Of a stretch of 53,840 bases of DNA, positions 1-22,213 are shown piece by piece. Below the pieces are notes generated by a model, which did no database searches, was not told where the DNA came from, and saw only the letters and a list, made by a program, of their open reading frames with translations. Origin of the DNA: a virus (lineage: Duplodnaviria; Caudoviricetes). Location: positions 1-53,840 of IMG/VR virus record IMGVR_UViG_3300031227_000060; one strand, written 5' to 3'. A program made the position numbers and the translations under genes. The stretch's first letter is position 1. The number at the start of each line of letters is the position of its first letter.

Positions 1-628
1 TTGTGATTTTCATCTGCTCGGCTGCATCCTGCCCCCACTCGCTCATAAGAGCAATGTCAGACTGATGCTTGTCGATGTCGTCACAAATCGCATTGTAATA
101 CTTGGCACGTTCAATCGGAAACTCAACGAGAGGATTGTCAGGATGCTGAATGTCAAGCACCTGGTTCTTGGTGTAATCAAGAATCTCGATGTCAGGACGG
201 GTACGAATCTTTACAACATCGCCCTGATTTCTGATATCCGTTGTGTTTACGTCCGAGGCTCTTTATCCTCGGCTCCTACATGTTTCCATGCAGACCGGAC
301 TATATCTTCGGTTCTTTTTTAAACAAACCGCAGCGCGCTCGTGTCGCTTTACCACCATGCCCACAAAGTGAGCTTAGGTTCCATGCGTTAGTCTCTGAAC
401 CTTCAACCTGTTTCCAGGAAGCTTGGCTGCTGATTGTCCTCGTCTTTACGTTAGGATATTCCAGCAATTCACGCTGTTTAGAGAGAGCCATTAATAACCC
501 TCGTAATACGTGTTGGCCATCCCGGGGAAGATGGATGCTATATAGTACTTGACTAAAAGCATGCGACTCCATTTTTCCGGGATAAAATTGCCACTGAATT
601 GTGGCGTTCCTGCTGCTGCTGCTATCAT
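1..628 (-). CDS. Major capsid protein, 5' part (exon 1 628..497, exon 2 238..<1); runs off the left edge
   Basis: ATG at 628 after GGGAGA. Spliced reading MIAAAAGTPQFSGNFIPEKWSRMLLVKYY...ANTYYEG|DIRNQGDVVKIRTRPDIEILDY matches the FIPExWS...NTxYEGxIxxxGDxVxI N-terminus of P22-coat-like capsid proteins. Lies directly after the scaffold gene. Confidence 0.9.
239..496 (-). ncRNA. Group I intron (258 nt, no ORF, IA-like)
   Basis: P (AATTGCTGGAA), Q (AATCAGCAG), R (GTTCAGAGACTA) and S (AAGATATAGTCC) occur in order. P1 GAGGGU/GCUCUC has U.G at the 5' splice site; P9 CTGCATG-GAAA-CATGTAG; terminal G at 239. Removal restores the capsid frame. Confidence 0.95.
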
Positions 629-2781: not shown

Positions 2782-3180
2782 TTATCCGTATTCCATATCC
2801 GAAAGCCCAACACCGTCATTGTCAAGACTGTCGAGGTGTTCAGTTAATGAACTTCCCTCGCTTGCCATGCTCCTGTTTTGGTCTATCGTTTCTATATTTT
2901 GAAGCGTATTGCTGGCATTGTCGATTATGCCCAAAAGCTGGTCTATAAACTGACAAACGCCCTGGTGCCCATTGACCTGAGAACCCTCAGAAACATCATT
3001 ATATTTCCGGTAGCTTGCGAGTGATTCTTCCAAAAAATCCTTAACGGAGTTCGTTGACTGACCTGCAAACTTTAAAGCATTCAGGGCCGGTAAGTACTTT
3101 CCTTCTGCGCTTAATTGAATGATTTTCAATGCAATAACCCCTTCCCCCCTGGGAGCACGACGTTTGTTCTGACCAGCCAA
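2782..3180 (-). CDS. Hypothetical protein (start uncertain)
   Basis: ORF in the head module. Confidence 0.55.
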   Translation of the reverse strand: MAGQNKRRAPRGEGVIALKIIQLSAEGKYLPALNALKFAGQSTNSVKDFLEESLASYRKYNDVSEGSQVNGHQGVCQFIDQLLGIIDNASNTLQNIETIDQNRSMASEGSSLTEHLDSLDNDGVGLSDMEYG

Positions 3181-3704
3181 AATGGTACAGAAAGCACCAT
3201 CTCGCTAACCATTTCCTTCGCTTCGCCTATGAAATAAGCAAGTTCCTTGTCCTTGTAAATATGAAGACCTTCCTGCCAAATTTCATCCACCTGGGATTTT
3301 CTGTGCTTTGATACTCTTACACGATGTTCCCTGAACAGTTTTTTCTTTAACTTGTCATCGCTGAAGATTTTCTTTAACTTGGACAAAGTTGGGAAGAAAG
3401 AGAACTCTTCTATTTTTACAAGCTTGAACAGGTCCACACCTAAACTTTTCATGGCATATTCCACACAATCTTCAATCGCCATTATAGCACTTACCCTGTC
3501 GTCTCTCCGGATTTCATCAAGGCTTTTATACATTACAGCCCACTGTTCCTTTTCATCCTCTTCGATATCACCGAATGTCCTGTGGTCGGTAATGTTCGGT
3601 ATGTCTTGAAGAAACGCCTCTTCACCATCTACAAGAACGGTATTAAGTTTATCATGCGAACTTTCGCCTATCTTGTTGAGTTCGTCTTTAAGCTGTTCTG
3701 ACAT
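3126..3704 (-). CDS. Hypothetical protein
   Basis: AGGAGG RBS; overlaps the portal stop. Confidence 0.65.
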   Translation of the reverse strand: MSEQLKDELNKIGESSHDKLNTVLVDGEEAFLQDIPNITDHRTFGDIEEDEKEQWAVMYKSLDEIRRDDRVSAIMAIEDCVEYAMKSLGVDLFKLVKIEEFSFFPTLSKLKKIFSDDKLKKKLFREHRVRVSKHRKSQVDEIWQEGLHIYKDKELAYFIGEAKEMVSEMVLSVPFWLVRTNVVLPGGKGLLH

Positions 3705-5712
3705 CCTGGCCTCCTACCTTGTCTCCTGCCTGATTAGTTTTAGCACCCTCGGTTATTTGACCCCTACCTGTCGACTGTGGAGCGTTTTGCGCCACTATAT
3801 TCTGAAGCAGTATGTCTTCCTTCGACGGTACAATATCCGCAGTTGAACCGTCAAGCCCGGTAAAGAACTGTCTCATGAACTCAGAGAATCCTTCTCTTCC
3901 GATCAATTCAAGCACCGCAGGATGAACTACCATCTGTAAAGCTTCCTGCCGTCTTATTTGCGCCTGTTCTTTGTTAATCAACGACTTTGAGCCTGTAGCT
4001 TGTAAATTTATATCCCCCATTCTTAAAACCGGGTCAGGATCTGTCATTAATAAATAATGATGGAGAGCTTCGATTGATCCTTCAATAACTCCGTCAATGC
4101 TTTTAACAACCTTTTTTATATTTCTGGAAGCGTTTGACATCATCATGCTAAAGCCTGTCGCTGTGTTTATCGCTCCGCCGCCACCCTTTTGACCGTAAGA
4201 ATATTTAGGAATTCCGCTTTTATTATCAGCCTCGTTTGAAAAGAACTCATATAGTTTAATCAACTCACTAATCATGGACTTCGGCTGAAAAAACCAGATA
4301 GGAGCTCTTGTTCCGCTCTGAACATCCTTCATTTTGAATTGCCATATCTTGAGTGGCGTTATTGTTTTTATGGTGTCTCCTGGGGCCATTGCGTCCGTAT
4401 CGACCCCGACTTGAGGCCCTGTTATCATGCCAGCGTTATTTGCAATATTTCTTGCTGCAGCACCACACATTCTGTCGGAATCTTCGATTAAATCAGGAAG
4501 GCCCTCGCCCCACCATTGGTCTTTTCGCTCTCTAAAGGAAGCCTTGAATAAATTATACTTTCCTAAAGGATTTTCATTCAAAACGGCTTTTATAACATAT
4601 CTGCCGATAAGCCACACTTCAGCATCGTAAGACTCGAACAAGTCACCCAATCTCTCAGGGCTCACGCCATGCTGAACCAACTGAAGCCCTTGAACCTGGC
4701 CTTTAAATTGGAGCGCATCGATTGTTCCTTCCGGATCTGACTCAGGATACTGTCTATAAGACAGTCTGTCGAATTCGTTTTGATTGGTTTCATACGTCCA
4801 TTTTGTAAGACCTCCGCTGCCATAGTCCTTTAAAACAAGATCGATTGCATCGTTGTCGTAACCCGGAGCTCCTTTTAAACTCTGGATATATCTTGGTTTC
4901 AGGGTATGTTTCTGTATATATCCGTCTTCAGGTTTTCTACTGGCCGGTAGAGGATATATATCAAACGGACTCGGAGCGTCCCATGTTACCATTAATTTCG
5001 TCGTGGGTTGAGGATTACCTTGTTCATCCCATGCCATTATTCGTTTTTTCCTGATAATCGGACCTTCCAGAAATCCCGCTTTGTAATCCACCAAGTCAGA
5101 GATAAATCCTTTAAGAGCTTCTTTCCAGTTACTTTCTACAACAACGTCTTTTATTTTACTTTCGATAGCCGCCTCAGCTTCATTTGCCACTTCCTGCATT
5201 TTCTTCTGAATATGAGCCGATATCATTTTAATTCTCTGGTCTATATCTGATGGAAGAGTATAAACGCCATTAACTATTACCATTTCAGTTTTTGCCTTGA
5301 CTTCCTCAGCAATCATTTCTTTCTGAGGCGGCGGTAACATCGGCACAGGAGAACGCTTAAAATCAAAAGGCATTTCGTTTAAAAGAATATCGAATAGCCA
5401 TGCTTTCGCAGCTTCGCACTTCTCGTCTGTCAAGCGCATAAAAACCGAAGACCCACCCTGGGCTCTGATTTTAGCCAAAACAGAAGGCTCATATTCTCCC
5501 TTGAGGCGACGCTTAACCTTCAGCATTTCGGCTTCAATCCATGTTTGTTTTTCGTCCCTTGCGGCTTCCCAGGATCTCTTCACATAACTTGATAAAGATG
5601 TAACAACCGGGTCTTGCTGTCTCCTGGTTGCCATTTCATCTTCCATAAACAAGGACTCATCATTGGCTATCTGGTCATTGTTTTTATATCCTTCCATTTC
5701 TAAATTCGGCAT
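3688..5712 (-). CDS. Portal protein
   Basis: 674 aa; WDAPSPFDIYP, WWGEGLPDLI...NIANNAGMITGPQV and ADNKSGIPKYSYG segments typical of podovirus-type portals; upstream of scaffold and capsid. Confidence 0.85.
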   Translation of the reverse strand: MPNLEMEGYKNNDQIANDESLFMEDEMATRRQQDPVVTSLSSYVKRSWEAARDEKQTWIEAEMLKVKRRLKGEYEPSVLAKIRAQGGSSVFMRLTDEKCEAAKAWLFDILLNEMPFDFKRSPVPMLPPPQKEMIAEEVKAKTEMVIVNGVYTLPSDIDQRIKMISAHIQKKMQEVANEAEAAIESKIKDVVVESNWKEALKGFISDLVDYKAGFLEGPIIRKKRIMAWDEQGNPQPTTKLMVTWDAPSPFDIYPLPASRKPEDGYIQKHTLKPRYIQSLKGAPGYDNDAIDLVLKDYGSGGLTKWTYETNQNEFDRLSYRQYPESDPEGTIDALQFKGQVQGLQLVQHGVSPERLGDLFESYDAEVWLIGRYVIKAVLNENPLGKYNLFKASFRERKDQWWGEGLPDLIEDSDRMCGAAARNIANNAGMITGPQVGVDTDAMAPGDTIKTITPLKIWQFKMKDVQSGTRAPIWFFQPKSMISELIKLYEFFSNEADNKSGIPKYSYGQKGGGGAINTATGFSMMMSNASRNIKKVVKSIDGVIEGSIEALHHYLLMTDPDPVLRMGDINLQATGSKSLINKEQAQIRRQEALQMVVHPAVLELIGREGFSEFMRQFFTGLDGSTADIVPSKEDILLQNIVAQNAPQSTGRGQITEGAKTNQAGDKVGGQDVRTA

Positions 5713-5715
5713 AAT

Positions 5716-6024
5716 TTACCCCTTCGGATCGTACTCAATATGAAAGTGGTTTCCTTCTAATATTACATCAAAATCTTTTCCAAGACTCTCCTTTAAGTCT
5801 TTTTCAAGGTCTTTCAGTGTGATTGTAATGCGCTTCTTCGGCCTTCTAAGGTCAATGGCTAAATCGGCATAATGAAGCGAATTTGCCCCATGATCGCCCT
5901 CGTATGTTGACGATATAACGGCTTCTCCATATCCATTCCTCTCGAAGATGTTGTCAATCAGGTCTAATTTGCGCCTGATAGGTCTTTTTAACCTCGCTAT
6001 GTCAACGCCGAGTTTTAAAAGCAT
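5716..6024 (-). CDS. Endolysin, peptidase M15-like Zn peptidase
   Basis: SLHYADLAIDL (H-x6-D) and HFHIEYD (HxH) zinc ligands. Confidence 0.75.
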   Translation of the reverse strand: MLLKLGVDIARLKRPIRRKLDLIDNIFERNGYGEAVISSTYEGDHGANSLHYADLAIDLRRPKKRITITLKDLEKDLKESLGKDFDVILEGNHFHIEYDPKG

Positions 6025-6326
6025 TATCCGTCTCCGTTCTTAATGAGTGTTTTAATTTCGCGAAGCTCCTTAAATGTCAAATCTTTTAGTGTGGTCATCT
6101 CCTGTGTAATATGTTCCCGCATTTTCAACCCCGCATTTTCACATACAAGGCCATGTTTTTCATTTGTGATATGCTCGCCACTTTTCGTTTCGAGTTTTTC
6201 TATCTTTTCATCCTGGGTCTTAGCCTTATCATTAATCTTGTTATTCTGACCCCTTAAAATAAAACCAAGTAGCCCGAATTGAGCAAAAAGTGTCGTCCCC
6301 GCTATTACTGTTACAACATCACTCAT
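6024..6326 (-). CDS. Holin-like protein (one N-terminal TM plus coiled coil)
   Basis: Hydrophobic N-terminus; coupled to the endolysin gene. Confidence 0.45.
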   Translation of the reverse strand: MSDVVTVIAGTTLFAQFGLLGFILRGQNNKINDKAKTQDEKIEKLETKSGEHITNEKHGLVCENAGLKMREHITQEMTTLKDLTFKELREIKTLIKNGDG

Positions 6327-6367: not shown

Positions 6368-6688
6368 TTACTCCGAAGAAACAAGACGGAAACCCCCCGG
6401 AGTTGTCGGCTTTCCCAAAGACACCGAATCGCTGTGGTCACTTTCGCCTATAATATTTGATGCCGTAACAGTAAAAATAACATCAGCATCTCCACTTGGG
6501 AGAGTAAGCGATGATACAAGAATCTCTGTAACCATCCCAACGTCCTGCGGCGCTCCGTCCACATAGACAGTATATTTTTCTACAATGCCCTCCGAAGCCG
6601 TCCACGACAATGTTGTCTCTGCACTCGCTACCCCTGCCAAAAAACAAACTGCCAAAATTGCGATAAATAAAGCTTTAAACATTTTCAT
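6368..6688 (-). CDS. Secreted fibronectin-III-like protein
   Basis: Signal peptide ending GVASA; TLSWTAS...YTVY...FTVTASNIIGES FN3 pattern. Confidence 0.75.
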   Translation of the reverse strand: MKMFKALFIAILAVCFLAGVASAETTLSWTASEGIVEKYTVYVDGAPQDVGMVTEILVSSLTLPSGDADVIFTVTASNIIGESDHSDSVSLGKPTTPGGFRLVSSE

Positions 6689-6689
6689 T

Positions 6690-8468
6690 TTATTGTGCTC
6701 CTATGCTGTGTGTTGATCCAGCCGTTAAAGAGTGTGTTGATCCAGTTGTCAGTGAATGTTCGTGAGGCAATGCTGGGCTCCCTTGAACAACTATGTCCAC
6801 CTGTGTTGAACTTTCATTTGTATAGCCAAGCTCATCCTGCCCTCTAACATATTGTGTCTCAGTAACTCCACAGGATAGCGAACTTAAAGTCTCTGAATGA
6901 CTCGTATCATCAGTATTCGTAAATGTATCCCCCATGCTCCCAAAAGCCACATCTGAGGAATCATATTTTAATTCTACATTTAATATTGTTGAGAACACCA
7001 TGTCGTGATTCAGTGGGTCGGTTACACAGGAAACAGGGGTGCTTGTCAAATTAGTCAAGGTTGGAGGAACTCCATACAAATCAGCCCCTATTTCCCATCC
7101 TGAACCATAATCATCTTGATCTCCTGCAACCACACTTGCCGGAAACGTTGATCCTTCAGCGTCTACTATAATGTCATAAGGAGAACCTAAGTTTATTGCC
7201 GAATTAATCGCTGGAGAGCCTACTTGAAGTGCAAAATCAGTTACAACTACGTTTTCACCACCCAACTCTCTCCATCCCGACGTTCTTAGAATCACAGGAT
7301 CAGCATAGGAAAGATCGTTAGCTCCCTTGGCATTCGTATCAGGCTCAGATGACCACAAATTGTAGTCAAAGTCTATATCGCTGTCAGCAGTCCATGACAA
7401 ATTACTACAACCCCCGCCCGTAATACAATAAAAAATGTTATCCTTTATTTCAGAGTTTTCAGCATCCTTGTTGCCATAGAAACCCATGTTTCTAACATTA
7501 TCCACAAGAGTATTACTGTAAATTTTATGATCTTTAAAAACAGCATCCTCATGTGAAGTACCGAAGTAAAATCCAACATAGCAGTAAGCAATAAAGTTAC
7601 CATATATTTCTACATTTTCCGAGTAAGCGTCATTGTGCCACTGTTCGTCATCTATCATAATTCCGTGACCGTTAGAATCACTTCCATGTCCAAAGATTAG
7701 ATTATATCTTATTATATTATTCCTGCTTGAACCGTTATATATATTAACTCTTCGGTTCTCATAAACGAAGTTGTTTTCAACAAGACTATTGGTAGTGTGG
7801 TAGTAAAGACCAATACCCTCTCCCCAATTATTATGGACAGTGTTGTCGCTAAAAGTCATGCTATCGCAACCATTCATACAAAAAATTGCAGCAGGCCAAT
7901 CAGCTACTTGATATACCCATGCAACATCTGTTACTGTGCACCCTATAGCAGAACAGTTATTGCTTGGGCCACCAAAACCAATCCCCGTTCTATATGCTTT
8001 GTTTACGTCACAATTTAAGACATCAATATACGAAGACTCATCAACCCAAATAGCCCTGGCAAGAGAGTTGACCACTCTGATATTCGTAAGAGTTATATAG
8101 GATTGAGTATCTATGCCGATTAGATGTGACCACGTAGCAGTTGGATAAGTATATTCTCCGTCTATTGTTGGCTTGGTTCCACTTACCCCTATTGTTCCAG
8201 ACCCATAATAAGCTCCGACAATTGCCGGGTTGCCTGCATCAACACCACTCCAGTCTATATTTAAAGTTTCGCCTGTCCAAGTGTCATCACACTTGAAATA
8301 AACGTCATCACCAGCTACCCAGTCACTCTTTGCATTCACTTCAGCCAAAGTAAAAGCGGTGGCATCTGACAAACCATCTCCGCCACTTGCATCATCTCGA
8401 CAGTAATAATTAGTAGCCCAAACACTCTGAGCGTAAAGCAAAAACAATACGATAAGCAGTTTCTTCAT
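6690..8468 (-). CDS. Secreted right-handed beta-helix protein
   Basis: Signal MKKLLIVLFLLYAQSVWA; Asn-ladder repeats (NTVHNN, ENNFVYEN, RYNLIF); FALQVGSPAINSA...EIGAD. Confidence 0.8.
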   Translation of the reverse strand: MKKLLIVLFLLYAQSVWATNYYCRDDASGGDGLSDATAFTLAEVNAKSDWVAGDDVYFKCDDTWTGETLNIDWSGVDAGNPAIVGAYYGSGTIGVSGTKPTIDGEYTYPTATWSHLIGIDTQSYITLTNIRVVNSLARAIWVDESSYIDVLNCDVNKAYRTGIGFGGPSNNCSAIGCTVTDVAWVYQVADWPAAIFCMNGCDSMTFSDNTVHNNWGEGIGLYYHTTNSLVENNFVYENRRVNIYNGSSRNNIIRYNLIFGHGSDSNGHGIMIDDEQWHNDAYSENVEIYGNFIAYCYVGFYFGTSHEDAVFKDHKIYSNTLVDNVRNMGFYGNKDAENSEIKDNIFYCITGGGCSNLSWTADSDIDFDYNLWSSEPDTNAKGANDLSYADPVILRTSGWRELGGENVVVTDFALQVGSPAINSAINLGSPYDIIVDAEGSTFPASVVAGDQDDYGSGWEIGADLYGVPPTLTNLTSTPVSCVTDPLNHDMVFSTILNVELKYDSSDVAFGSMGDTFTNTDDTSHSETLSSLSCGVTETQYVRGQDELGYTNESSTQVDIVVQGSPALPHEHSLTTGSTHSLTAGSTHSIGAQ

Positions 8469-9052
8469 TCCGTTACCCTCAAAATAACTCCCATATCATC
8501 TGCCGCAGAAGTAGCCCAACTCGTAGCCGTTGGATCAGGTGCGCCCGAATGCACCGGCGCAGTGTCATAAAAAATATCAACACTACTTCCCCCATCGTCG
8601 TAACCTAATTTTGGATCTCCATCACTCGCATCCCACGCAAGACCATAGTAAAGATCATTGTCGCCCGATGTGTAATTAAGGTTCTGCCCACCGACCACAT
8701 TTAGCGATAAATAACCTGTCCAGCCAACCCCAGGCGTACCCAAGGCATCTGAATATCCAATTAACGCAGTTTCGCGATAGACAACGAGCCACGCATTTGT
8801 AGTCCAGCTATCATTCCGCACATACGCATTGATCCCTGTGATTGTCCCGCTTACTATAGGGTCATATTTGTTACAGTATGTACTATCAACAGGAGTCCCC
8901 CACGAAGTCCAAGAGCCAACAGGAGCAGAGGGCGTTCCGGCAGTATTCGGGAAGCCGTAATATTTAACTTCATGTGTTCCAGCGTAATACCAGCCCCCGG
9001 AAGCGAGTGCCGGAATCAGTAATAGAATGAGTATGTATTTAATCAACCGCAT
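8465..9052 (-). CDS. Secreted beta-rich protein (probable start 9052)
   Basis: MRLIKYILILLLIPALASG signal peptide; the start overlaps the end of the upstream gene. Confidence 0.7.
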   Translation of the reverse strand: MRLIKYILILLLIPALASGGWYYAGTHEVKYYGFPNTAGTPSAPVGSWTSWGTPVDSTYCNKYDPIVSGTITGINAYVRNDSWTTNAWLVVYRETALIGYSDALGTPGVGWTGYLSLNVVGGQNLNYTSGDNDLYYGLAWDASDGDPKLGYDDGGSSVDIFYDTAPVHSGAPDPTATSWATSAADDMGVILRVTE

Positions 9053-10025
9053 AATACCACATTTCAAAGATAACTTGTTCCCCTGTCGCTGTATAGGCTG
9101 TATCAAAGTCGAGGAAGATAACTTGTCCATTTGCCACCACGCTTCCATCAGTGTTAATATTTGTATATGTGTCTTCTCCGGACACTCCACTTGTAGTTTC
9201 GAGGTCACCCATTGTTGCAGCAGAACCTTGCCCAATAAACGCTGTTGCTCTTTTTAACAGCACATGGACTGTACCGAATTCAGTACCAGGGTCTTGTGAA
9301 AAAGATACTGACCACTCAACAATCCTTATACCATTAGGGGCATTGTCCCCTACAGTCATAAGCAATAGAGCATCAACATCTCCGGCGCAAACCGCTACCG
9401 GATCAAATGACCAAGACTTATGAAGCGGCCCACCTACGAGATACTCTTCAGCTATTTCATCTCCTGCGCCTACGACATGAATAAAGTCATCAGTAGAGGT
9501 TATCTGTCCGAACTCAGCCTTGCCCGTACCGTGAAAGCTGATTGTTGGATCACCCGAATCATTCGTAATGTCTATCCTATCCGTACCATCCTTACGAAAA
9601 CTAATAAATCCAGCAGTGCCAAGTGTCCAAGCGTGTCCATACGTTCCCATGTTGTAATTCATGGCTCCGGTCGGATTGTCCAAATTATTAATCGGAGCCG
9701 TGAAAAGACTGAATGTTATATTACCATAATCAAGCTCATTGTCGGCCACTGTGCTTGCACTCAAAGCGCCTCCAGCTTCCAGGTCGGTTCCCACTCCAAG
9801 TATGTTTGCATAAGTATCCGCCGTTGACAGGCCGGTAGAAACGTCTATGATATATGCTTTGTCTCCAGGTGCAGGCCCACCGGCCGGAGCCGATAGATCC
9901 GACACTTTACTATCAGCAGCCCATACAGTCGAGACACTAATAAATAAAAACACGAACCAGACTGTCGTTTGGGCCTTGATCGTTGGATTTTTAAGGAAAG
10001 CTGTTATTCGTTTCATATTTTTCAT
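9039..10025 (-). CDS. Tail-fibre-like protein with signal peptide
   Basis: VWFVFLFISVSTVWA followed by ADSKVSDLSAPAGG, paralogous to the mature N-terminus of the 1303-aa protein. Confidence 0.7.
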   Translation of the reverse strand: MKNMKRITAFLKNPTIKAQTTVWFVFLFISVSTVWAADSKVSDLSAPAGGPAPGDKAYIIDVSTGLSTADTYANILGVGTDLEAGGALSASTVADNELDYGNITFSLFTAPINNLDNPTGAMNYNMGTYGHAWTLGTAGFISFRKDGTDRIDITNDSGDPTISFHGTGKAEFGQITSTDDFIHVVGAGDEIAEEYLVGGPLHKSWSFDPVAVCAGDVDALLLMTVGDNAPNGIRIVEWSVSFSQDPGTEFGTVHVLLKRATAFIGQGSAATMGDLETTSGVSGEDTYTNINTDGSVVANGQVIFLDFDTAYTATGEQVIFEMWYYAVD

Positions 10026-10048
10026 TTTATCACTCCGGTCTATGCTCC

Positions 10049-13000
10049 TTATTTAATCTGATGCAAAACCTTAAATGCAAAAGCAAGTGTCCCACCTATC
10101 TGGTTCTCAAGATAAAACACGCCATCAGCGTCTACCGAAGCTGTTACTTTGCCGCCATTTCCAGTTGTTCCATTTAACGCCACCGTCAAAACTTCAAAAT
10201 CAGAACCTCCACCTACGATTGAGATAGTATTTGTTCCTGCCGTCTCAGCCATTATCTGACCGCCACGCTCTACACTACTCTTAGCCATAACAGAAATTAA
10301 ATATGAACCTTCACCTAAAGCATAACTTGCAAAACCCTCATTAGCTATATTCCACTCACCACTTGCCAATGGCCCTTCATAGTACATAAAATCAGCAACA
10401 ACAGGTGTGGTTCCAGTATAATTAGACTCTGAGAAATCCATAGGTCCAATGTACCCACCATTATCTGTAGCAGTAACAGTTATTAATCGTGTTGAGGCAT
10501 TCTCATCTGGGCCAAAAGAACAACCATCAACCATTATGCTGTCGCCATCATTCCACATAATAGCTGATTGAGTTTGCGCCCCATCATATGCATTATCTTC
10601 AAAGTGGACATCTTTCACTTGAAAGTTTGCTATATCAACTTTAGATTGGGCCGTACCGTCAACTCGAATGGCGGTTATTCCTGCTTGACGCATTGTACCA
10701 CCATGAAATGAAATATTACTTGGAACAATCTGAGCAGCGGTAATGGCTATATAAACTAAATAATCTGCAAATGTAAGTCCACCATCGGAGGCCAGCATGC
10801 CCCTTAAATAACAATTAGCAAATTTAATGTTTTGATAAACACCTGCCTTACCTACACCGCTACCAGAGGCAGCTACCGTTCCGCCTATAATAACGCAGTT
10901 ATTCTCAGGTTCATCAAAATAGCAATTATCAACCATTACATCGGTAATAAAATTACCTCTATTTGTGCCATCGGGTGTAAAATTAATACCAAAAGCATAT
11001 TTATACAGATGACAATTCTGTATATATAAACCATCAACAGACCTTATAACAAAAATATTAGACCATACATGATCTTGTGTTGCCCCCGAACCCCTAAACT
11101 CGCAATTAGTTATGTGGTTTCCACCTGAAGTGAAACCATCTGTAGCGCGTCCAGATAAAGCGATTGCAGCAGGGGCAGGAGTGTTCGCTCGGCTCCATTG
11201 AGTAAAAAGGCAGTTGTCTATTGTGCTTGTATTAAACCTGTAACCGTCAATGGCATACGCCCAATTGTTAAATTTACAATCTCTAATAGTTGTAAAAATA
11301 GCATCGTGCGCTTCTATAGCCTTTGTTGTTGTGCTTTCATCTATTGCTCCACCGGCAGCAAAGATAATATTTTCAATATGTACAAAATAAGTTCGTTCAT
11401 TTGATGCTAATACCAATTCCGATGTTTCAGAAATAGTCCAAAACTCATTAATCACCGATCCAGTATCAGGAGTCACCGTGACAACCGCTGCAACTGCCGA
11501 AGCTGAAATACCAGAAACAGCATCTATAGCTGCTGCAATATTTGTGGCAGTAACATCATTACTTGTTTCTGCATCCCATGTATCTCCTTCTTCAAGAGTT
11601 GTATCGGTAATCCCTGATCCATCTATTGTAATTGTATCAGCTACACCAATCGTTGAATAATCAACAACTGTTAGTTTATACCTATTATCACCAAGCTGTA
11701 GAAGTACAATGTCAGCAGTACTGGAAGATAACTGCGCTCCACGACCAACAGTACCTACAAGTCCAACGCCATCTGCATTAATCATTTTAACTGTTGAAGT
11801 TATATTATATTGACCATTTAACCTGACCTCACACCCAATATCTCCAACATCTAAAAACGTACCTGACGCAATAGTCACAGCGGTGTCTATGGCATATTGA
11901 ACTTCCGCTGTGTCATCACCAGTGCCATCGCCGTTAGCACCCCACCATTCAGGATAAACAATTTTTTCTCTTGGACTACCTGCGATTGTGAGAGCTGTTC
12001 CCTGTATCCATTTATGCAAACCGGCTTGAATACTTCCATAAACAGTTAAAGTTTCATCACCTGTGTTACCAGTAAGCGCAGCCCCATTTTCAATTACCAT
12101 GCTAACTGTGGACGGTATAGTTTCATCAGTGTCAAATGTATAAACTGTCTGAGCATCTTGATCAGTGTGTTTAAAACGAAGCGTCAAAGGATTACCAGCA
12201 GCAGCATCTATCAGAGCGTTTACTGTTTGACCATTACCGGCTGCACCTTGATCCGCTTCAGAAGCATCAACGTCCGAAAGTAGCATAACTACATTATCAG
12301 CAAATGTCCAAGAAACTGATATAGTTTCTTCTTCGTCTGATTTTACTATCGCTGCATCGGCAGCTTCAACACTCACACCAATATCTGCACTGTCTACTAC
12401 CTGAGCCCATGCGGCCAGATAAAACTCAAGTTGGTCTGTTGAACTGTTGAATCTCATATCCCCGTACGAAGGACTTCCGGGTCTTGTCCCTGTGGTTCCA
12501 GCAGGCAGCTGCATCTTTTCATTGCCAGGAATTATCGGATTGCTGACAATCCCGAAAGCCGTACCTGTTAAATCTATTTCGTTTGCTGTGCCGGTGTATA
12601 CGACATTTGCCTCTGCACCATCCGCAACATTAAGTATCACCCTTGCTTCAGTTGGGGTTTTATAATCATACTCACCAGAAGTATTATTCCAATATAAAGA
12701 ATCGTTGTTCGCTGTTCCTGCATTAGTATTGCTCGCAGTTGCGACACTGCCGCCTCCGCCTTTTGACCCACGTAAATCAATCGCATAAAGACCCGTGCCT
12801 GTTTCCGGAATTTCTTGTAGATAATCATTCACATCATTTTTAATAATAATCCTACAAACCGGTATAAAAATACCTTTCAATAATGTATCCGATGGAGCTA
12901 AAACCAGAGTTCCATATTTATCCTCTGTTGCTTCTTTTGAATTCTTATACTCCTTTCCGCCTGGGATTGTATCAGCCTTCTGAACTAAGGCCATAATTCT

Positions 13001-13960
13001 TGTTGTATCTTCTTCAACTACTCCAAGAACTACATTATAAAATTTATTAGCCGATATCGCTTCTCCAGTTGAATAATGGGTAAAAGCAAAATCGGTTAAT
13101 GTGCTATATGTCCCAGCATTTAAAATGTGAAACAATCCATCAGTTCCAACAACCTTTTGAGTTGTGGTAATTGTGTCAAAAATTGTATTTAGAGATCCAG
13201 TGGCTATCGTAACATTGGCTTGGACTGCTGTGATATCCATTCCTGAATAGTATGCTGAACCATCTGTCCAAAATCTATGATAGGTATGATGAACCACTTC
13301 ATAACTTGTCATTGCGGTAGTAAACCCGCCATACAGAGTCAAAGAGGAAGCGGAAACAGCACCAGCTTTATAATTTGCAACATCCACATGTTCTAATACT
13401 CCTTCTGGACTTGTATTCGAAGCTGTTAATGTTGCCGTTCCAGTGACATTTCTTACATAAACATAAACGGTGTTGGGGCTAGCATCTGTTCCGGCAAATG
13501 ATGTAGCGATAACAGACATAGTGTCGTCATCGTTTTTTAAATGTACTTTGTCTATATTAAACGCAAGATCAAGCCCATCGTCTTGAGTTATTGTAACTGT
13601 CCAAACTCCACCCGACACAGCGCTTGATACTGTAAATCTATTCAAAGCAACATCATCAGTTATATCCGTTAAAAGAAATCCATTTTTCTGAAGTGCGGCC
13701 TCTACCTCGCCACCTTCAAAATACCCTCCAGCATCTACTATAGGAACGTCGGAAGCGGTCAAGAGCGAGCCGAAGTAAGTCCATACGTTAGTGAGCGTAT
13801 CGCCGACAGAAACAGAGCCGGAGTCATCCACCATGTAGAATTTATCATCACCGGCAACCCCGCCTGACGGAGCCGGAAGTTCGGAGACTTTCTGGTCAGC
13901 GCCCTGCGCTATTCCAAAGGTCAAGAACAAAATAAATAATATTCTCAATAAATGTTTCAT
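10049..13960 (-). CDS. Tailspike/tail fibre with pectate-lyase-like beta-helix and signal peptide
   Basis: MKHLLRILFILFLTFGIAQG then ADQKVSELPA; LPAGTTGTRP...GDMRFNSSTDQLEFY fibre motif; PEWWGANGDGTGDDTAEVQYAID beta-helix cap. Confidence 0.85.
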   Translation of the reverse strand: MKHLLRILFILFLTFGIAQGADQKVSELPAPSGGVAGDDKFYMVDDSGSVSVGDTLTNVWTYFGSLLTASDVPIVDAGGYFEGGEVEAALQKNGFLLTDITDDVALNRFTVSSAVSGGVWTVTITQDDGLDLAFNIDKVHLKNDDDTMSVIATSFAGTDASPNTVYVYVRNVTGTATLTASNTSPEGVLEHVDVANYKAGAVSASSLTLYGGFTTAMTSYEVVHHTYHRFWTDGSAYYSGMDITAVQANVTIATGSLNTIFDTITTTQKVVGTDGLFHILNAGTYSTLTDFAFTHYSTGEAISANKFYNVVLGVVEEDTTRIMALVQKADTIPGGKEYKNSKEATEDKYGTLVLAPSDTLLKGIFIPVCRIIIKNDVNDYLQEIPETGTGLYAIDLRGSKGGGGSVATASNTNAGTANNDSLYWNNTSGEYDYKTPTEARVILNVADGAEANVVYTGTANEIDLTGTAFGIVSNPIIPGNEKMQLPAGTTGTRPGSPSYGDMRFNSSTDQLEFYLAAWAQVVDSADIGVSVEAADAAIVKSDEEETISVSWTFADNVVMLLSDVDASEADQGAAGNGQTVNALIDAAAGNPLTLRFKHTDQDAQTVYTFDTDETIPSTVSMVIENGAALTGNTGDETLTVYGSIQAGLHKWIQGTALTIAGSPREKIVYPEWWGANGDGTGDDTAEVQYAIDTAVTIASGTFLDVGDIGCEVRLNGQYNITSTVKMINADGVGLVGTVGRGAQLSSSTADIVLLQLGDNRYKLTVVDYSTIGVADTITIDGSGITDTTLEEGDTWDAETSNDVTATNIAAAIDAVSGISASAVAAVVTVTPDTGSVINEFWTISETSELVLASNERTYFVHIENIIFAAGGAIDESTTTKAIEAHDAIFTTIRDCKFNNWAYAIDGYRFNTSTIDNCLFTQWSRANTPAPAAIALSGRATDGFTSGGNHITNCEFRGSGATQDHVWSNIFVIRSVDGLYIQNCHLYKYAFGINFTPDGTNRGNFITDVMVDNCYFDEPENNCVIIGGTVAASGSGVGKAGVYQNIKFANCYLRGMLASDGGLTFADYLVYIAITAAQIVPSNISFHGGTMRQAGITAIRVDGTAQSKVDIANFQVKDVHFEDNAYDGAQTQSAIMWNDGDSIMVDGCSFGPDENASTRLITVTATDNGGYIGPMDFSESNYTGTTPVVADFMYYEGPLASGEWNIANEGFASYALGEGSYLISVMAKSSVERGGQIMAETAGTNTISIVGGGSDFEVLTVALNGTTGNGGKVTASVDADGVFYLENQIGGTLAFAFKVLHQIK

Positions 13961-13963
13961 AAC

Positions 13964-14161
13964 TTACTCCAATAATAGATAATCGCCTGATTCAAGCAGT
14001 AAAAAGTCGCCTGACTCCAATAGTACGGCATCGGCTGAAGGTCCACCAGCGCCTCCACCAACTGCTTCCGGTGAGCCCTGATCCCTGTAAAACCAAAAAG
14101 AACCGTAAGCAGAACCGGCGAACAATAATATTGTAAGTGTGATAATAAGTATTTTTTTCAT
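13964..14161 (-). CDS. Small fibre-associated protein with signal peptide (probable start 14161)
   Basis: MKKILIITLTILLFAGSAYG; C-terminal LLESGDFLLLESGDYLLLE repeat; TGATG coupling to the upstream gene. Confidence 0.7.
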   Translation of the reverse strand: MKKILIITLTILLFAGSAYGSFWFYRDQGSPEAVGGGAGGPSADAVLLESGDFLLLESGDYLLLE

Positions 14162-14541
14162 CAGTAACCAGCCCCACACCTTCCAGTCGATGTCCCATAT
14201 TCTACCGAAAACGTAGCTCCGGTTTGGGTAATCGAATAATAAAGTCCTGTTTTGAACAAAACATCGTCGTATGTTCTTCCGGACGTTAATGGACTCGCAG
14301 ACCCGGCAGTTGACCAATATCCAACAACCCTGCCGGAAGCCGCAGTTTTGCTATCATACAACGTCAAGATAACGTCATTTGTGTCCGGTGTAAGCTGAAT
14401 AGCCCTTAGATATCCTCCACCGGTAAAGAGCAACCCTGAAGCCGATCCTGTTGTATTCCCCGTGGTGCAGGTTTCGTCAGCCGCGTCAGCAATTCCACAA
14501 AGAACGCTGAAAATTAGAAGTATTGCAATAGATAGTTTCAT
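14161..14541 (-). CDS. Small beta-sandwich-type protein with signal peptide (probable start 14541)
   Basis: AGGAGAG RBS; MKLSIAILLIFSVLCGIADA; LTLYDSKTAASG...VLFKTGLY. Confidence 0.7.
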   Translation of the reverse strand: MKLSIAILLIFSVLCGIADAADETCTTGNTTGSASGLLFTGGGYLRAIQLTPDTNDVILTLYDSKTAASGRVVGYWSTAGSASPLTSGRTYDDVLFKTGLYYSITQTGATFSVEYGTSTGRCGAGY

Positions 14542-15522: not shown

Positions 15523-17157
15523 TCACAACAACCCCGCAAATAATAAGTTTCCGCCACTTTGAAACGCCATGGTGAAATAGTTGCCAGCATGGCGATAATG
15601 GTCGGGACCCGTCTTTAAATAAACGTATCTTGAAGCGCCAGTTTCCGGATCTGTCTGTAATACTCTGGCTATATTGCTGCATTGAGTGGCGAACTCCTGA
15701 ATAATTTCAGACTCTTTGGGCAGCACAACCCGGCCTTGTCTTAACTCTTCATGGGAAGCGTCAAGAGATTCAGTTCTGTTTACAGTCACGGTCAATTCCT
15801 TTTCATTCCAACCATATGAGCCCTTTTGATGTTCATTATAAAAACAGCAATAGACTTTTCCATGATTGTCTTTTGCAAATTCCCTTGAAAGTCTTGTTTC
15901 CGGAAGTCCATCGATAACACCCCGGACAACATTAAATCGCTTCACAAGGCTATTAAGTTGCGACCATTCAGGGAATGCACCGGCATATACAATCTCAGCG
16001 CCCTTGTCGTGCTTTTTGCCGATAACACAGTGAATAAGACTCCCAACATCTACACCCATGTAACAGGGGCCCTTGTCGCTTTCTTGAATCGATTCGATAC
16101 CGCATAGCTTAATAACCTCGGAATAGGTCAGTCTGTTTTCTGCAGCGATATGAGCCTGTGCGAGTTTTGAGTTGTAAACCTCGCTGATATTTCCATTTGG
16201 AGGATCAAGATATAATTTAAGTATCTGAGCAGGATCGACAGGCATGGAGTTTAACTGACTGATTCTCCAACCCACGAGATCCTTAGCTTTCTCCGGATAC
16301 TTCGGGACCCACTGACCGTCTTTAGGAAAGATCTCTGCCCTTCTGCATCTCTGACACAATCGAAGGACTTTTCCGTTCTTTAATTCATGCAAACAATCAG
16401 GAAACTCCGTCTCAAGACAGGTAAGCCCACCGCACTTTGAACACTTTATGAGCCAGTGTCTTTGATCTGAGTCCTGAAATAGCTTATCAACCCCATAATC
16501 AGGAATAGTCGGAGTGGAAAGATGAACCTCTTCCTTAATTTCAGAGTGAGACATTCGCTCAAGTGCAAGGTCAACCATATCGTTAGCCATTTCATCACGT
16601 TCATCAAACACAACTCTATCAACCGGCACCGATTTTAATGCAGTAGATGACCGTTTCATCCCATGGATTTTAGAAGTTGCTCTCGCACCACGCATGTAAA
16701 GCATGGCCCTGCCAATTCGCTTAATATTTTTAGCATCAGTGCTTTTGATATACTTAGCCATTTCCTCATTGTCGTTAATAAGGGGATTAAACCGGCCACT
16801 TGAAAAGTCATTTACATCATCTCTGGAAGGAAATAGATATAAAGCTCCCTGTAAATACCTGGCTGAAATAAGACCATAAAGAGTTTTAAGCATGATAATT
16901 GATGTCACACCAACCTGAGCGCCTTTAAGGAAGACCTGTCTTATAGCTTCCTCTTCAAGCATGTCTCTTTGATATTCATGGCCTTCTAAGCTGAACGGCC
17001 TGCCATCCAGCAATAACGCTTCAGCCCAAGGGACAACATCGGGAAGAGTTGTTATGTCTCCCAACAAACTAAGGCTCGCAAATAGCCTGTCGTAATGCTC
17101 GCTTGCTGCTAAGTTTGTATATAATTCGGTCCCTAACATCTTTGTCCACTTCTCCAA
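15523..17157 (-). CDS. terL: Terminase large subunit, lambda GpA-like (true start probably downstream, near 17070-17100)
   Basis: LKGAQVGVT Walker A, VVFDERD Walker B, STPT coupling motif, CSKC/CQRC Zn ribbon, MGVDVG and C-terminal DHY nuclease motifs. Confidence 0.9.
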   Translation of the reverse strand: MEKWTKMLGTELYTNLAASEHYDRLFASLSLLGDITTLPDVVPWAEALLLDGRPFSLEGHEYQRDMLEEEAIRQVFLKGAQVGVTSIIMLKTLYGLISARYLQGALYLFPSRDDVNDFSSGRFNPLINDNEEMAKYIKSTDAKNIKRIGRAMLYMRGARATSKIHGMKRSSTALKSVPVDRVVFDERDEMANDMVDLALERMSHSEIKEEVHLSTPTIPDYGVDKLFQDSDQRHWLIKCSKCGGLTCLETEFPDCLHELKNGKVLRLCQRCRRAEIFPKDGQWVPKYPEKAKDLVGWRISQLNSMPVDPAQILKLYLDPPNGNISEVYNSKLAQAHIAAENRLTYSEVIKLCGIESIQESDKGPCYMGVDVGSLIHCVIGKKHDKGAEIVYAGAFPEWSQLNSLVKRFNVVRGVIDGLPETRLSREFAKDNHGKVYCCFYNEHQKGSYGWNEKELTVTVNRTESLDASHEELRQGRVVLPKESEIIQEFATQCSNIARVLQTDPETGASRYVYLKTGPDHYRHAGNYFTMAFQSGGNLLFAGLL

Positions 17158-19609: not shown

Positions 19610-20068
19610 TTAGTAAAGTCGCTCATAAGCTTTTGACCCCGCATAAGAACCATCCTCCAGAAAGTTAAGTTGCTTAACAGAAAAACCTTCTGTCTTCATG
19701 GCTCTTTTTATTTGTAGAGTGTTTTGTCTTACTGAAACAGTCAGCCCGGTAGCTTTACATTCAATCTCGAATCCGTCCTTGATTAACATAACCGGGCCAG
19801 TTCCTTCGTCGTGTTCTATTGCATCGATAGAGTGATTTGGATCTATCTTGTCAAGAACCCAATCTGTCGCTTTAGAGAACGGCATTCTCCACGGTATTTT
19901 TCCGCCATGGGCTTGCTTCACCTTTCCGAGTTGAGACGATATGGTTTCGTCGTGATGTCCTCCCAGGAAAGCGTGTCCAAGCTGGTCAAAGGCCAGGAGT
20001 AGGTTCATAACGTATGAAGGTTTTTTGTTGTTGTCGTTCACACTATCGGTATATTTGTAGTTTTTCAT
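19610..20068 (-). CDS. Hypothetical phage protein
   Basis: NLLLAFDQLGHAFLGG..DETISS..G motif. Confidence 0.6.
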   Translation of the reverse strand: MKNYKYTDSVNDNNKKPSYVMNLLLAFDQLGHAFLGGHHDETISSQLGKVKQAHGGKIPWRMPFSKATDWVLDKIDPNHSIDAIEHDEGTGPVMLIKDGFEIECKATGLTVSVRQNTLQIKRAMKTEGFSVKQLNFLEDGSYAGSKAYERLY

Positions 20069-20634
20069 TCAAGCCCTTCCTTGAACGCCTGAACGCCGAC
20101 TTTAGCAAGTGCCATATCAAGAGTGTTTACGTCAAGTTCGACTGATATTTTGAGCTTTTTTGCAAGCCGTTCGGTAACGCTCCGAATTTCAGGATCTTTA
20201 ATGTATTTCGATAGGTCTGCAAGCGCGTCTCGAAGCGCAGTTCCAATATACTCCGGATCGTCGGAATTTAATATCAGGTCGCAGACCCTGTTTGCATGAC
20301 CGATGTATTCAGGATGCTGTTTCTTAAACTTTGAACCGAGTTCATAGCCGATAGCGTCAATAACAGCTTCTTGAGTTTCTATGCTTACACCAGTGTCTTT
20401 AATGAGTTTGTTAAACTGAGTGCAGCCCGAGAATACGACGAACATTGACAAGATAAGAATCGGAATTGTTTTCTTTTTTGAAGCCTTTACCACTCCACGA
20501 TATAAAAGCGTGATAAGGTCTGCTTCGGGGCCTCCGAACTTATTAATGTATTTTGTGATTGTGTTGGCGATAAGACCGAAAAGAATGCCTGATACTTCAG
20601 GATTTGCCGCAATCCATAACGCTACTGCTTCCAT
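20065..20634 (-). CDS. Membrane protein with an internal lipobox-like motif (probable start 20634)
   Basis: AAGGAGG RBS; N-terminal hydrophobic segment, then KKKTIPILILSMFVVFSGC. Confidence 0.6.
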   Translation of the reverse strand: MEAVALWIAANPEVSGILFGLIANTITKYINKFGGPEADLITLLYRGVVKASKKKTIPILILSMFVVFSGCTQFNKLIKDTGVSIETQEAVIDAIGYELGSKFKKQHPEYIGHANRVCDLILNSDDPEYIGTALRDALADLSKYIKDPEIRSVTERLAKKLKISVELDVNTLDMALAKVGVQAFKEGLE

Positions 20635-22184: not shown

Positions 22185-22213
22185 TTTTATCCTCCTGTTT
22201 TGTCAAGTGTTAT

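Follow-up and report, generated by a model that had tools for sequence, protein, structure and literature searches.

Morphogenesis of tailed phages is, in the textbook account, entirely cytoplasmic. Virion proteins with signal peptides are known from the Inoviridae, whose pIII and pVIII enter or cross the inner membrane before they are assembled; these viruses differ from the arrangement considered here in their ssDNA, extrusion without lysis, lack of head and tail, and assembly at the membrane rather than after lysis. Outer parts that join or mature after leaving the cytoplasm are exemplified by P22, whose tailspikes add in vitro to tail-less heads, and by Acidianus two-tailed virus, which grows tails extracellularly; the former is a laboratory reaction, the latter virus is archaeal, and both differ in having no signal peptides. 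SAR endolysins and spanins are Sec-dependent late lysis proteins; they resemble the present case as late phage proteins that rely on host sorting, and putative lysis genes adjoin the cluster described below, but they are non-virion lysis effectors encoded by one to three genes rather than ten. Spanins use host Sec or lipoprotein sorting (PMC13001222).

The MAT fibres of Bdellovibrio are described as tail-fibre-like trimers that carry a signal peptide directly before a conserved N-terminal domain and are exported and folded outside the cytoplasm (PMC10769870). By that description they share the position of the signal peptide with fibre-like proteins found here, but as described they are encoded by the bacterium and displayed on its own surface, with no virus particle. 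Signal peptides were also reported for 3261 of 64,678 prophage carbohydrate-active enzymes (5%), Sec-directed polysaccharide enzymes among which the beta-helix protein g6 described below would fit; that study left out tail fibres and structural proteins and does not extend to central tail, fibre and cement proteins (PMC13507307). The closest cultured phages are Bcep22-like, Ralstonia GP4-like and Stx-933W-like podophages, which have nozzle-like homologues and a giant polyvalent protein in common with the lineage studied here. Bcep22 and the Ralstonia phage UAM5 further share the order tail fibre, nozzle-like protein, virion structural protein, and the modelled fold of a cement-like protein of the lineage matches the GP4 capsid chain 8h89_J. 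In Bcep22 and UAM5 the nozzle-like homologue is leaderless, whereas the present lineage prepends 20-23 hydrophobic residues to its nozzle-like, fibre and cement-like proteins.

The window is the whole stretch of 53,840 nucleotides that was analysed. Its relevant features are:

15523-17157, minus strand: terminase large subunit, TerL (phrog_675, 7e-92); leaderless
14161-14541, minus strand: g1, 126 aa; Sec-type leader, then a small beta-rich protein with 2 Cys
13964-14161, minus strand: g2, 65 aa; leader, then a mature peptide of 45 aa containing LLESGD twice
10049-13960, minus strand: g3, 1303 aa; leader at residues 1-20, docking-type N-module beginning ADQKVSEL (21-65), IVDAGGYF..ALQ repeat (74-95), conserved fibre core (65-447), GDMRFN motif (488-505)
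9039-10025, minus strand: g4, 328 aa; leader at residues 1-36 with a long n-region, then a g3-like ADSKVSDL N-module
8465-9052, minus strand: g5, 195 aa; leader, then a beta-sandwich-like protein
6690-8468, minus strand: g6, 592 aa; leader, then a right-handed beta-helix
6368-6688, minus strand: g7, 106 aa; leader, then a weak fn3-like domain
6024-6326, minus strand: putative holin-like protein with one N-terminal hydrophobic helix
5716-6024, minus strand: putative endolysin (label of the original prediction), 102 aa; same place in the relative G007
3688-5712, minus strand: portal protein, confirmed; leaderless
38475-48821, minus strand: polyvalent (ejection-type) protein, 3448 aa; leaderless, no cysteine
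52654-52935, minus strand: eighth leader-bearing late gene, 93 aa; mature N-terminus YKLPNVP
52932-53840, minus strand: last 302 aa of a nozzle-like central tail protein (phrog_511), truncated where the record ends

The genes g1 to g7 are tightly packed, as had been noted, with successive gaps of -1, 3, 23, -14, -4 and 1 nt. Their placement between terL and holin-like and endolysin genes stood on the terL side, where two leaderless ORFs (207 and 67 aa) between terL and g1 correct the earlier layout; on the other side, neither the holin-like nor the 'endolysin' gene had a family or PDB match. The holin label derives from the single hydrophobic helix near the N-terminus and from resemblance to a protein of contig L002 whose gene, judged by eye, precedes a lysozyme-like gene.

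Sec-type leaders had been proposed for all seven genes. All seven passed a test for n-, h- and c-regions, compared with 6% of shuffled N-termini of window ORFs (225/3750), the test being a liberal, home-made heuristic that placed some cleavage sites two residues away from those originally proposed. Homology boundaries favour the original sites for g3 and g6. The test flagged 14 of 64 ORFs, and the probability that all seven named ORFs would be among them by chance is 5.5e-6. In each of the seven, an n-region with a net charge of +1 to +5 precedes an uncharged hydrophobic h-region about 7-18 residues long (mean Kyte-Doolittle 2.06-3.14), followed by small residues at -1/-3; the sites from g1 to g7 are IADA, SAYG, IAQG, VWA, ASG, VWA and ASA. 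Reading of the g1-g7 leaders revealed neither an RR motif nor Cys at +1. By these features the leaders resemble genuine Sec signals of type I, and every g1-g7 product would be made with a cleavable one.

All records are metagenome assemblies and the gene calls are our own ORF picks, so that an artefact has to be considered: start codons could be misplaced, assemblies faulty, or the hydrophobic N-termini meaningless. We regard this as very improbable. Besides the low pass rate of shuffled sequences, the same leaders recur in the independent assemblies L031, L035 and G007; AGGAG or GGAG sequences resembling Shine-Dalgarno sites lie upstream of several leader ATGs, and the genes abut or overlap. 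Nor are alternative starts available: ATG, GTG and TTG are absent from the six codons before every predicted site in g1-g7; a GTG lies at +5 in g4 and a TTG at +4 in g7. Nozzle-like genes likewise have no start codon at the junction of leader and mature part in 3/3 relatives.

Fibre-type motifs proposed for the mature parts were recovered where expected. The ADxKVSxL motif stands directly after the leader twice, as ADQKVSEL at g3 21-28 and ADSKVSDL from g4 residue 37, in N-modules that are 40% identical over 60 aa; LLESGD occurs at g2 residues 47 and 55, and a GTT..RP..GDMRFN-type motif at g3 488-505 (GTTGTRPGSPSYGDMRFN). It had been suggested that homologues might begin at the ADxKxSEL position without a leader. 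The closest g3 homologue, P0002 (64% identical in the core), indeed starts with MADEKIS at g3 residue 21, and P0087 starts, leaderless, at the same residue. On these alignments the leader is a separable add-on module. All three g4 homologues (3/3) carry leaders, and the g4 C-terminal domain recurs within a leader gene of L018.

The assignment of the seven proteins to phage fibres held in part. For g3, the family was found in 9 viral loci as against none confirmed in genome_contigs in a scan with two peptide patterns, and a core model (pLDDT 62) matched fibre-like models: 27 BFVD entries with E <= 0.001 and a TM of about 0.3, the greater part being uncharacterised proteins of Caudovirales, and, as best relevant PDB match, the cyanophage A-1(L) tail fibre at E 0.05 over 107 columns. 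Against PHROG, none of g1-g7 matched a tail family at E <= 0.1, the sole match of g3 being phrog_19055 (unknown function, 0.028). In its C-terminal half, residues 669-683 are presumably a pectate-lyase-like start.

The predicted beta-helix of g6 was confirmed by Pfam Beta_helix PF13229 (8e-14, 52 bits, cut-off 25.9) and NosD PF05048 (1e-13, 51.6 bits, cut-off 23.6), and g6 is probably a polysaccharide-acting enzyme. Leaders were found in 58/74 homologues; 7/74 start M-x-YYV (M-TTYYV) exactly at the predicted cleavage point, and in 28 a conserved motif begins two residues past the predicted site. The family also occurs as single, secreted-type genes with leaders in polysaccharide-type loci of bacterial MAGs. 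For g6, then, relatedness to ordinary bacterial secreted proteins, which had been named as an argument against a fibre role, was partly found, and its leader could simply be inherited. Among the smaller proteins, g1 had no Pfam or PHROG match, g7 matched Pfam fn3 at E 0.038, below Pfam's cut-off, and an Atlas model of g5 may resemble PEP-CTERM-tagged proteins of bacteria (TM 0.66) as well as a viral cluster, which we take as a lead only.

Relatives of the window extended the pattern to virion proteins. Contig L031 bridges the two ends of the window (100% and 97.5% identity), and G007 is a complete relative (DTR) with an 86% identical TerL. Between them they show leaders on four more late proteins: a tail fibre, the central tail protein, a capsid-cement-like protein and a small neighbour. 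The proximal tail fibre on L031 matches, with residues 25-122, positions 5-102 of the phrog_8469 profile (3e-20), and also phrog_30299 (2e-15). The leader-bearing N-terminus of the nozzle-like protein is located on L031, where residue 21 aligns with residue 3 of a leaderless homologue in G003 (1e-38). The family profile (A3) matches the solved virion chain 8jov_A (9.5e-56), which we take to be the nozzle and which is present in six chains in that entry; the 302-aa fragment in the window matches phrog_511 (9.5e-30). The 8jov_A match, cultured homologues and synteny after the tail fibre gene identify it as a podophage central tail protein. Beside the capsid gene, a 171-aa leader-bearing protein had no PHROG match; its model, of mediocre quality like that of the g3 core (pLDDT 62, pTM 0.61), matches 7eel_H (4.5e-5), 8h89_J (1.7e-4) and 7dou_4, the KHP40 'trimeric cement protein' (2.6e-3), suggesting a capsid cement-type fold. 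The YKLPNVP mature N-terminus of the 93-aa protein is kept in relatives and heads a 639-aa protein in L035.

In G007, 10 late genes encode leaders, but no leader is present on the head, connector or ejection proteins. It retains g1 (40% identity, with leader), g7 (36%, with leader) and, judged by eye, a g2-like leader gene in the equivalent place, while g3-g6 are replaced by other leader-bearing proteins, as is usual for host-range cassettes. The original prediction had left undecided whether the exported proteins join virions or are displayed on the infected cell. Leaders on the central tail, proximal fibre and cement-like proteins strengthen the former possibility, through the nozzle-like, fibre and cement-like proteins of L031, G007 and L035 rather than through g1-g7 themselves.

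Homologues of the nozzle-like protein occur in 363 cultured records, and among the matches listed 29/30 start at query residue 21-23; the Bcep22 gp67 and UAM5 coding sequences begin 3 and 2 codons before the match and are leaderless. At IMG/VR loci, 21/23 distinct N-termini of this family are leaderless. Leaders drift faster than the adjacent mature parts (9/21 versus 46/60 identical residues in the nozzle-like protein, 9/19 versus 47/60 in the fibre), which points to evolution under a constraint on composition. These data bear on the idea that the hydrophobic N-termini do not direct export but are retained or hold the proteins at a membrane, either to bring tail parts together at the inner membrane for assembly or to insert into host membranes at infection, with virions completed in the cytoplasm as usual. 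Classical assembly needs a cytoplasmic central tail protein; certain leaders, those of g4 and of the 93-aa protein, are long or poorly terminated, and the AlphaFold model of the cement-like protein has a helix at residues 2-25 (low confidence). Against this idea, the small residues at -1/-3 are kept in all relatives despite drift of the h-region, and leaderless homologues begin exactly at the predicted mature residue. By the positive-inside rule a basic n-region predicts N-in, C-out topology, and therefore the bulk of each protein would lie outside the cytoplasm; hundreds of exposed hydrophobic helices on a cement protein would also be hard to square with a soluble particle. In some unrelated contigs, moreover, cleavage sites are followed by Gln, which we take to be Bacteroidota-style, and one contig has an RRDFIK Tat-type motif, both pointing to use of host export machinery. 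On balance we consider retained N-termini unlikely.

Runs of 3-8 leader-bearing distal tail genes occur in unrelated viral contigs. Whole modules tend to be either all-leader (L005, 4 genes; L007, 3; L012, 5; L013, 4; L017 and L030, 8; L018, 6) or all-leaderless (L016). In the relatives G003, G004 and L005, leaderless fibre-like genes lie beside the leader clusters, and the clusters there could be non-virion accessories. The same may be asked of g1-g7: they could be exported as a late, envelope-directed set beside the lysis genes, in which fibre-like binders and beta-helix depolymerases strip or cut host surface polysaccharide from the periplasmic side or from outside, freeing progeny, destroying receptors on debris or blocking superinfection. 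Such a set would fit the leader-bearing g6 relatives in bacterial polysaccharide-type loci, a leader cluster adjoining a holin-like gene in the window, L007, L013 and L017, the missing PHROG tail matches of g1-g7, the Wzy_C and PEP-CTERM genes also carried by the phage, and the 5% of prophage carbohydrate-active enzymes reported with signal peptides (PMC13507307). It does not account for the leaders of the phrog_8469 fibre, of the cement-like protein and of the nozzle-like protein, which is present in single copy. The docking-type N-module shared by g3 and g4 is moreover the very N-terminus of leaderless P0002, the g3 family was confirmed in viral loci only in the scan with two peptide patterns, and virion receptor-binding proteins typically undergo cassette swapping of the kind seen in G007. 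We judge an accessory set to be rather improbable.

The reading we prefer, and put at about an even call, is that g1-g7 are virion parts exported through Sec and added to heads formed in the cytoplasm, once the lysis proteins break through the inner membrane. They would be the distal, variable complement of receptor-binding proteins and depolymerases in a short-tailed phage of the Bcep22/GP4 kind. Leaders appear to be present on all, and confined to, outer virion proteins added after packaging (cement-like, central tail, proximal fibre, small neighbour and g1-g7), and the leaderless proteins are those that build or fill the head: capsid, scaffold, portal, terminase, connectors and ejection proteins. 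This division suggests that the outer parts of the lineage are made outside the cytoplasm and do not meet the DNA-filled heads before lysis. Export and cleavage, like folding in the periplasm and the union with heads at lysis, are steps we infer from the sequences. Heads would be assembled and filled in the cytoplasm, and outer parts would pass through Sec, lose their leaders to signal peptidase I, and then fold and form oligomers in the periplasm. The two sets would meet only once holin-type lysis proteins open the inner membrane, and particles would therefore become infectious at lysis; exported beta-helix enzymes may act on envelope polysaccharide before then. Counting against this reading, we know of no tailed phage that adds its central tail protein after lysis, and heads without that protein may not hold DNA, as established for P22 and T7. 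A cysteine comparison gave no clear signal: leader-bearing members contain slightly more Cys than leaderless ones (1.65 versus 1.44%, 1.30 versus 0.71%, 0.82 versus 0.45%) but have no even-number bias.

More tentatively, we propose a two-compartment lineage of tailed phages in which cement, central tail, fibres and spikes are Sec-exported and pre-assembled in the periplasm, particles become infectious just after holin opening, and partial versions, in which export is limited to the distal fibres, appear to occur widely among unrelated phages whose hosts belong to several phyla. In agreement with the original assertion that no such system is characterised, searches of the literature on tailed phages found none. 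If this is true, tailed phages have a second assembly topology, lysis controls infectivity, the phage depends on host Sec and signal peptidase, and envelope-directed enzymes may act and fold outside the cytoplasm. Tail proteins may then be hidden from cytoplasmic immune sensors, which bears on phage escape from defence systems that sense structural proteins there. Annotation would be affected because signal peptides are commonly used to rule out structural proteins; the reading of 'secreted' phage carbohydrate enzymes would change, and the design of recombinant receptor-binding proteins would be touched as well. In keeping with the preferred reading, the phage also makes use of host envelope sorting elsewhere, for a PEP-CTERM protein and a lipobox protein.

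All seven fibre- or spike-type genes for which the original prediction had claimed Sec signal peptides (g1 to g7) were confirmed to bear leaders and to lie in tandem on the minus strand, with intergenic gaps of -14 to +23 nt. Leader here denotes a Sec-type N-terminal signal, and mature the part following the predicted cleavage site.

Features of the window (coordinates, strand where recorded, description)
14161-14541, minus: g1
13964-14161, minus: g2
10049-13960, minus: g3
9039-10025, minus: g4
8465-9052, minus: g5
6690-8468, minus: g6
6368-6688, minus: g7
15523-17157: terminase large subunit, TerL (phrog_675, 7e-92)
3688-5712: portal (phrog_332, phrog_1216, Pfam SU10_portal)
20065-20493, minus: lipobox (..FSGC) protein, read from an internal start
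20769-21251, minus: N-terminally anchored 160-aa protein
21496-21786, minus: PEP-CTERM protein, 96 aa, with Sec-type leader and C-terminal sorting signal (Pfam 3.8e-9; TIGR02595 29.6 bits, cut-off 16)
22749-23909, minus: multi-pass membrane protein with Wzy_C (O-antigen ligase/polymerase) domain (7e-14)
38475-48821, minus: polyvalent protein, 3448 aa (InPase, LPD5, LPD1, ART-PolyVal and LPD38 domains)
19610-20068; 21922-22224 (plus strand): two doubtful flagged ORFs

In each of the seven genes (7/7), an MK or MR start is followed by an uncharged hydrophobic run and a small-x-small site. All seven passed a simple n/h/c test, compared to 225 of 3750 shuffled N-termini (6%), and the chance that all seven would be found within the 14 flagged of 64 ORFs is 5.5e-6. 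An overlap filter removed g2 and g5 from the ORF-wide scan, and the n/h/c test was run on both separately. Given these figures, we regard an artefact as very improbable. The seven other flagged ORFs were the PEP-CTERM, lipobox (internal start), anchored 160-aa and Wzy_C membrane proteins, a 93-aa late protein and the two doubtful ORFs. A dual start yielding a leaderless isoform by internal initiation was rejected, since the junctions carry no start codon: none was present in the six codons upstream of each predicted cleavage site of g1 to g7; a GTG occurs at +5 in g4 and a TTG at +4 in g7. The predicted fibre-type motifs were all found where they had been placed, and g6 matched a Pfam beta-helix family. 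The labels "holin-like" and "endolysin" for genes flanking the cluster found no library match in support, and the 102-aa protein called endolysin had no match among PDB sequences.

The window is an entire IMG/VR virus record (linear, 53,840 bp, about 95% complete), and a search with its cut-off last gene retrieved a 5.6-kb viral contig, L031, which overlaps both window ends (100% over 127 nt; 97.5% over 238 nt). It joins positions 1-624 and 53714-53840, adding approximately 5.1 kb. Window positions 239-497 have no counterpart in L031, which marks an indel between two nearly identical phages. The window's 90-aa ORF at 300-572 is the first part of the major capsid gene; the window's capsid-region protein had no match in a search of viral contigs.

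Genes of the bridging contig L031, in order
1: major capsid protein (phrog_267, 2e-37)
2: 171-aa protein with leader
3: three connector-type proteins without leader (phrog_399, phrog_437)
4: 303-aa protein with leader; hit to tail fibre profile phrog_8469 (3e-20; residues 25-122 on profile positions 5-102)
5: N-terminus of the window's last gene (nozzle-like central tail protein, phrog_511), with leader

The distantly related genome G003 had suggested that the real fibres of the virion are leaderless and encoded in the missing 5 kb; this was rejected, as the fibre of L031 has a leader. The model of the 171-aa leader protein, of moderate quality, is a jelly roll whose best PDB matches are small phage capsid chains: Pam1 7eel_H (4.5e-5), GP4 8h89_J, a KHP30 chain and the KHP40 "trimeric cement protein".

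For the nozzle-like protein, the leader could be compared with many leaderless homologues. In the alignment with the leaderless G003 homologue (E 1e-38), residue 21 of the L031 protein falls on residue 3. A profile of both matched the solved chain 8jov_A, "virion-associated phage protein" (9.5e-56), residue 4 of which aligns to profile position 21; a literature search found no relevant paper on 8JOV. The family extends to Ralstonia, Bcep22, Stx-converting and Vibrio phages, with homologues in 363 records of cultured phages, and in 29 of the 30 matches listed (best 30 of 363) the match begins at query residue 21-23. The annotated CDS starts 3 codons (Bcep22) or 2 codons (Ralstonia phage UAM5) before the match, and in both phages it comes after a "tail fiber protein" gene. 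Among 50 IMG/VR loci with a match reaching the N-terminus, 23 distinct N-termini were found; 21 were leaderless and two (L035, L037), both of the window lineage, had a leader. No alternative start was found at the leader/mature junction of three nozzle-like genes. By gene content the window phage is one of the Bcep22/GP4-like podophages; the cultured members of this group lack leaders, in contrast to the window lineage. None of the cultured phages is close to it, the top TerL match being 27% identical.

G007, a relative with TerL 86% identical to that of the window, is a complete genome (100%) of 56.6 kb with direct terminal repeats, and it has six leader genes between terL and portal. Compared with window 6368-14541, its positions 26765-33204 retain the edges of the cluster, with a g2-like gene and homologues of g1 (40%) and of g7 (36%), whereas unrelated leader-bearing proteins (235, 1047 and 483 aa) take the place of the middle part, g3 to g6. 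A whole-genome census gave ten late leader genes: these six, the 85-aa gene and the genes for the cement-like protein (the 171-aa type beside the capsid gene), the fibre and the nozzle-like protein. No leader is present on the capsid, scaffold, portal, terminase or connector proteins, on the ejection-type proteins (336, 556 and 2721 aa) or on early gene products; flags on TerL and a 210-aa ORF arise from internal Met residues and were discounted. After L031 and G007, the notion that only the seven genes are special was rejected. Identity is lower in the leader than in the adjoining mature sequence for both the nozzle-like protein (9/21 versus 46/60) and the fibre (9/19 versus 47/60); leaders thus diverge faster than their neighbouring sequence, yet retain composition and small -1/-3 residues. 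The alternative that the hydrophobic N-termini have a role other than export is one that we consider unlikely. Cysteine content, taken as a disulfide test, was slightly higher in leader-bearing members, with no even-number bias.

The division is clean: components that make up the head or fill it have no leader, whereas those added outside afterwards bear leaders. The best-supported reading, to which we give an even chance, is that the latter are exported and join virions at lysis. The outer proteins would be exported via Sec and cleaved, would fold in the periplasm, and would encounter heads once lysis proteins breach the inner membrane; g1 to g7 would form the variable, host-specific end of the exported set. 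The original leader observation stands and extends beyond g1 to g7; the original interpretation is partly supported, translocation being a step that we infer. We know of no precedent for a central tail protein added after lysis.

In the families of g3 and g6, members with and without leader indicate that the leader is a separable add-on. A 60-residue N-terminal stretch common to g3 and g4 (40% identity) starts right after the leader. With g3 residues 21-120 as query, an exhaustive HMMER search gave 84 proteins at E <= 0.001, most of them limited to a repeat motif at about residues 65-100. Residue 2 of homologue P0002 aligns to query residue 1, and homologue P0087 behaves alike; as both align from their own start to the mature g3 start, both are without leader. 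P0002, which starts MADEKIS, is the closest full homologue (64% identity over the core, E 1e-155). Eleven other proteins share the 380-residue core (g3 65-447) at 37-64% identity, and of this family of 12 including g3, judged by eye, 8 have a leader and 4 do not. Among 74 g6 homologues, 58 were flagged as leader-bearing (one, P0165, doubtful), 7 start M-x-YYV exactly at the others' predicted cleavage point, and 9 are incomplete or, although hydrophobic at the start, do not pass the test; in 28 homologues the predicted site lies two residues ahead of the start of the conserved motif. The g4 homologues all have a leader (3/3).

The g3 core was present in 9 viral loci (7 distinct), and none of 58 hits to two peptide patterns among genome contigs was confirmed. 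Exact peptide patterns revealed no close g3 relatives in viral contigs; g3 core, g3 N-terminus and g6 had no matches in cultured phages, nor g3 and g6 among PDB sequences. The AlphaFold model of the core was mediocre (pLDDT 62) and, at E <= 0.001, matched 27 viral structure predictions, most of them uncharacterised proteins of Caudovirales and a few of them named as tropism determinants, tail collar or receptor-binding proteins; in the PDB it weakly matched a cyanophage tail fibre. P0087, which has N-module and repeat, has matches among genes of cultured phages that are named "tail fiber" and "minor tail". For g6, 8 viral loci were found together with 6 relatives in MAGs of Deltaproteobacteria/Desulfobacterota and Sedimentisphaerales, the latter being single leader-bearing genes adjoining glycosyltransferase-like genes (by eye), an arrangement typical of a polysaccharide enzyme secreted by bacteria. 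Such a context favours the alternative that the set is exported but accessory, outside the virion; with leaders also on the fibre and nozzle-like proteins, we hold this alternative to be rather improbable.

Leaders also occur on runs of adjacent distal tail genes in other viral loci.

Leader genes in other viral loci
L005: 4 consecutive
L007 (=L006): 3 consecutive, with genes for membrane proteins and a lysozyme-like protein following
L004 (=L003): 1 Sec-type and 1 RRDFIK Tat-type
L012: 5 consecutive
L013 (=G003): 4 consecutive
L017 with L030 (=G004): 8 consecutive
L018: 6 consecutive
L016: 0; no leader on the neighbours of the beta-helix gene, which starts MTDYYV

The window's TerL and portal had no match in G001-G005, nor the G003 nozzle-like protein in G001, G002 and G004-G006. 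As no TerL or portal relationship to the window is detectable, leader clusters recur in unrelated phages. G003 and the window have nozzle-like, 165-aa, 328-aa, giant and g6 proteins in common. G003, G004 and L005 keep leaderless fibre-like genes, their leaders being confined to the distal cluster. For clusters of this kind on their own, the case for a place in the virion is weakened by these more distant relatives. In the cultured Tenacibaculum phage JQ, a relative of the L007 tail module, distal genes are leaderless. Leaders in L004, L006/L007 and many g3 N-region matches end in A/S/G followed by Gln, which we take to be Bacteroidota style; as window leaders lack this style, leaders seem host-tuned. 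Pfam gave no notable match to T9SS or other sorting domains in the leader proteins of L004, L005 and L007. The Tat-type signal of L004 (14787-15365; MKRRDFIK and a hydrophobic run) lies in the tail module directly after a leader-bearing 1680-aa fibre gene. In locus L002, a 336-aa ORF (2834-3844) two genes past a leaderless g3 homologue resembles a reverse transcriptase (by eye) and may belong to a diversity-generating retroelement targeting the fibre.

Exported virion proteins are known from filamentous phages, and Sec-dependent late proteins from phage lysis genes. In full-text literature searches, no paper was found that describes signal peptides on the tail proteins of a tailed phage. Two studies describe exported fibre-like trimers in Bdellovibrio (PMC10769870) and signal peptides on 5% of prophage carbohydrate enzymes (PMC13507307). 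None of these four systems covers tail or capsid add-ons of a tailed phage.

Hints to the host come from the PEP-CTERM and lipobox genes and from the g6 relatives in Desulfobacterota and Sedimentisphaerales MAGs. The PEP-CTERM signal on a 96-aa phage protein points to a diderm host with exosortase and to sorting of the phage protein to the host envelope. No tRNA genes were found in the window. The anchored 160-aa and lipobox proteins look like an i-spanin/o-spanin pair, located 14 kb away from the holin-like gene; neither had a family match. The 3448-aa polyvalent protein contains no cysteine, and the same holds for the neighbouring 677-aa and 328-aa proteins. The Wzy_C protein may remodel surface polysaccharide, and G007 carries a similar gene at 40270-41364.
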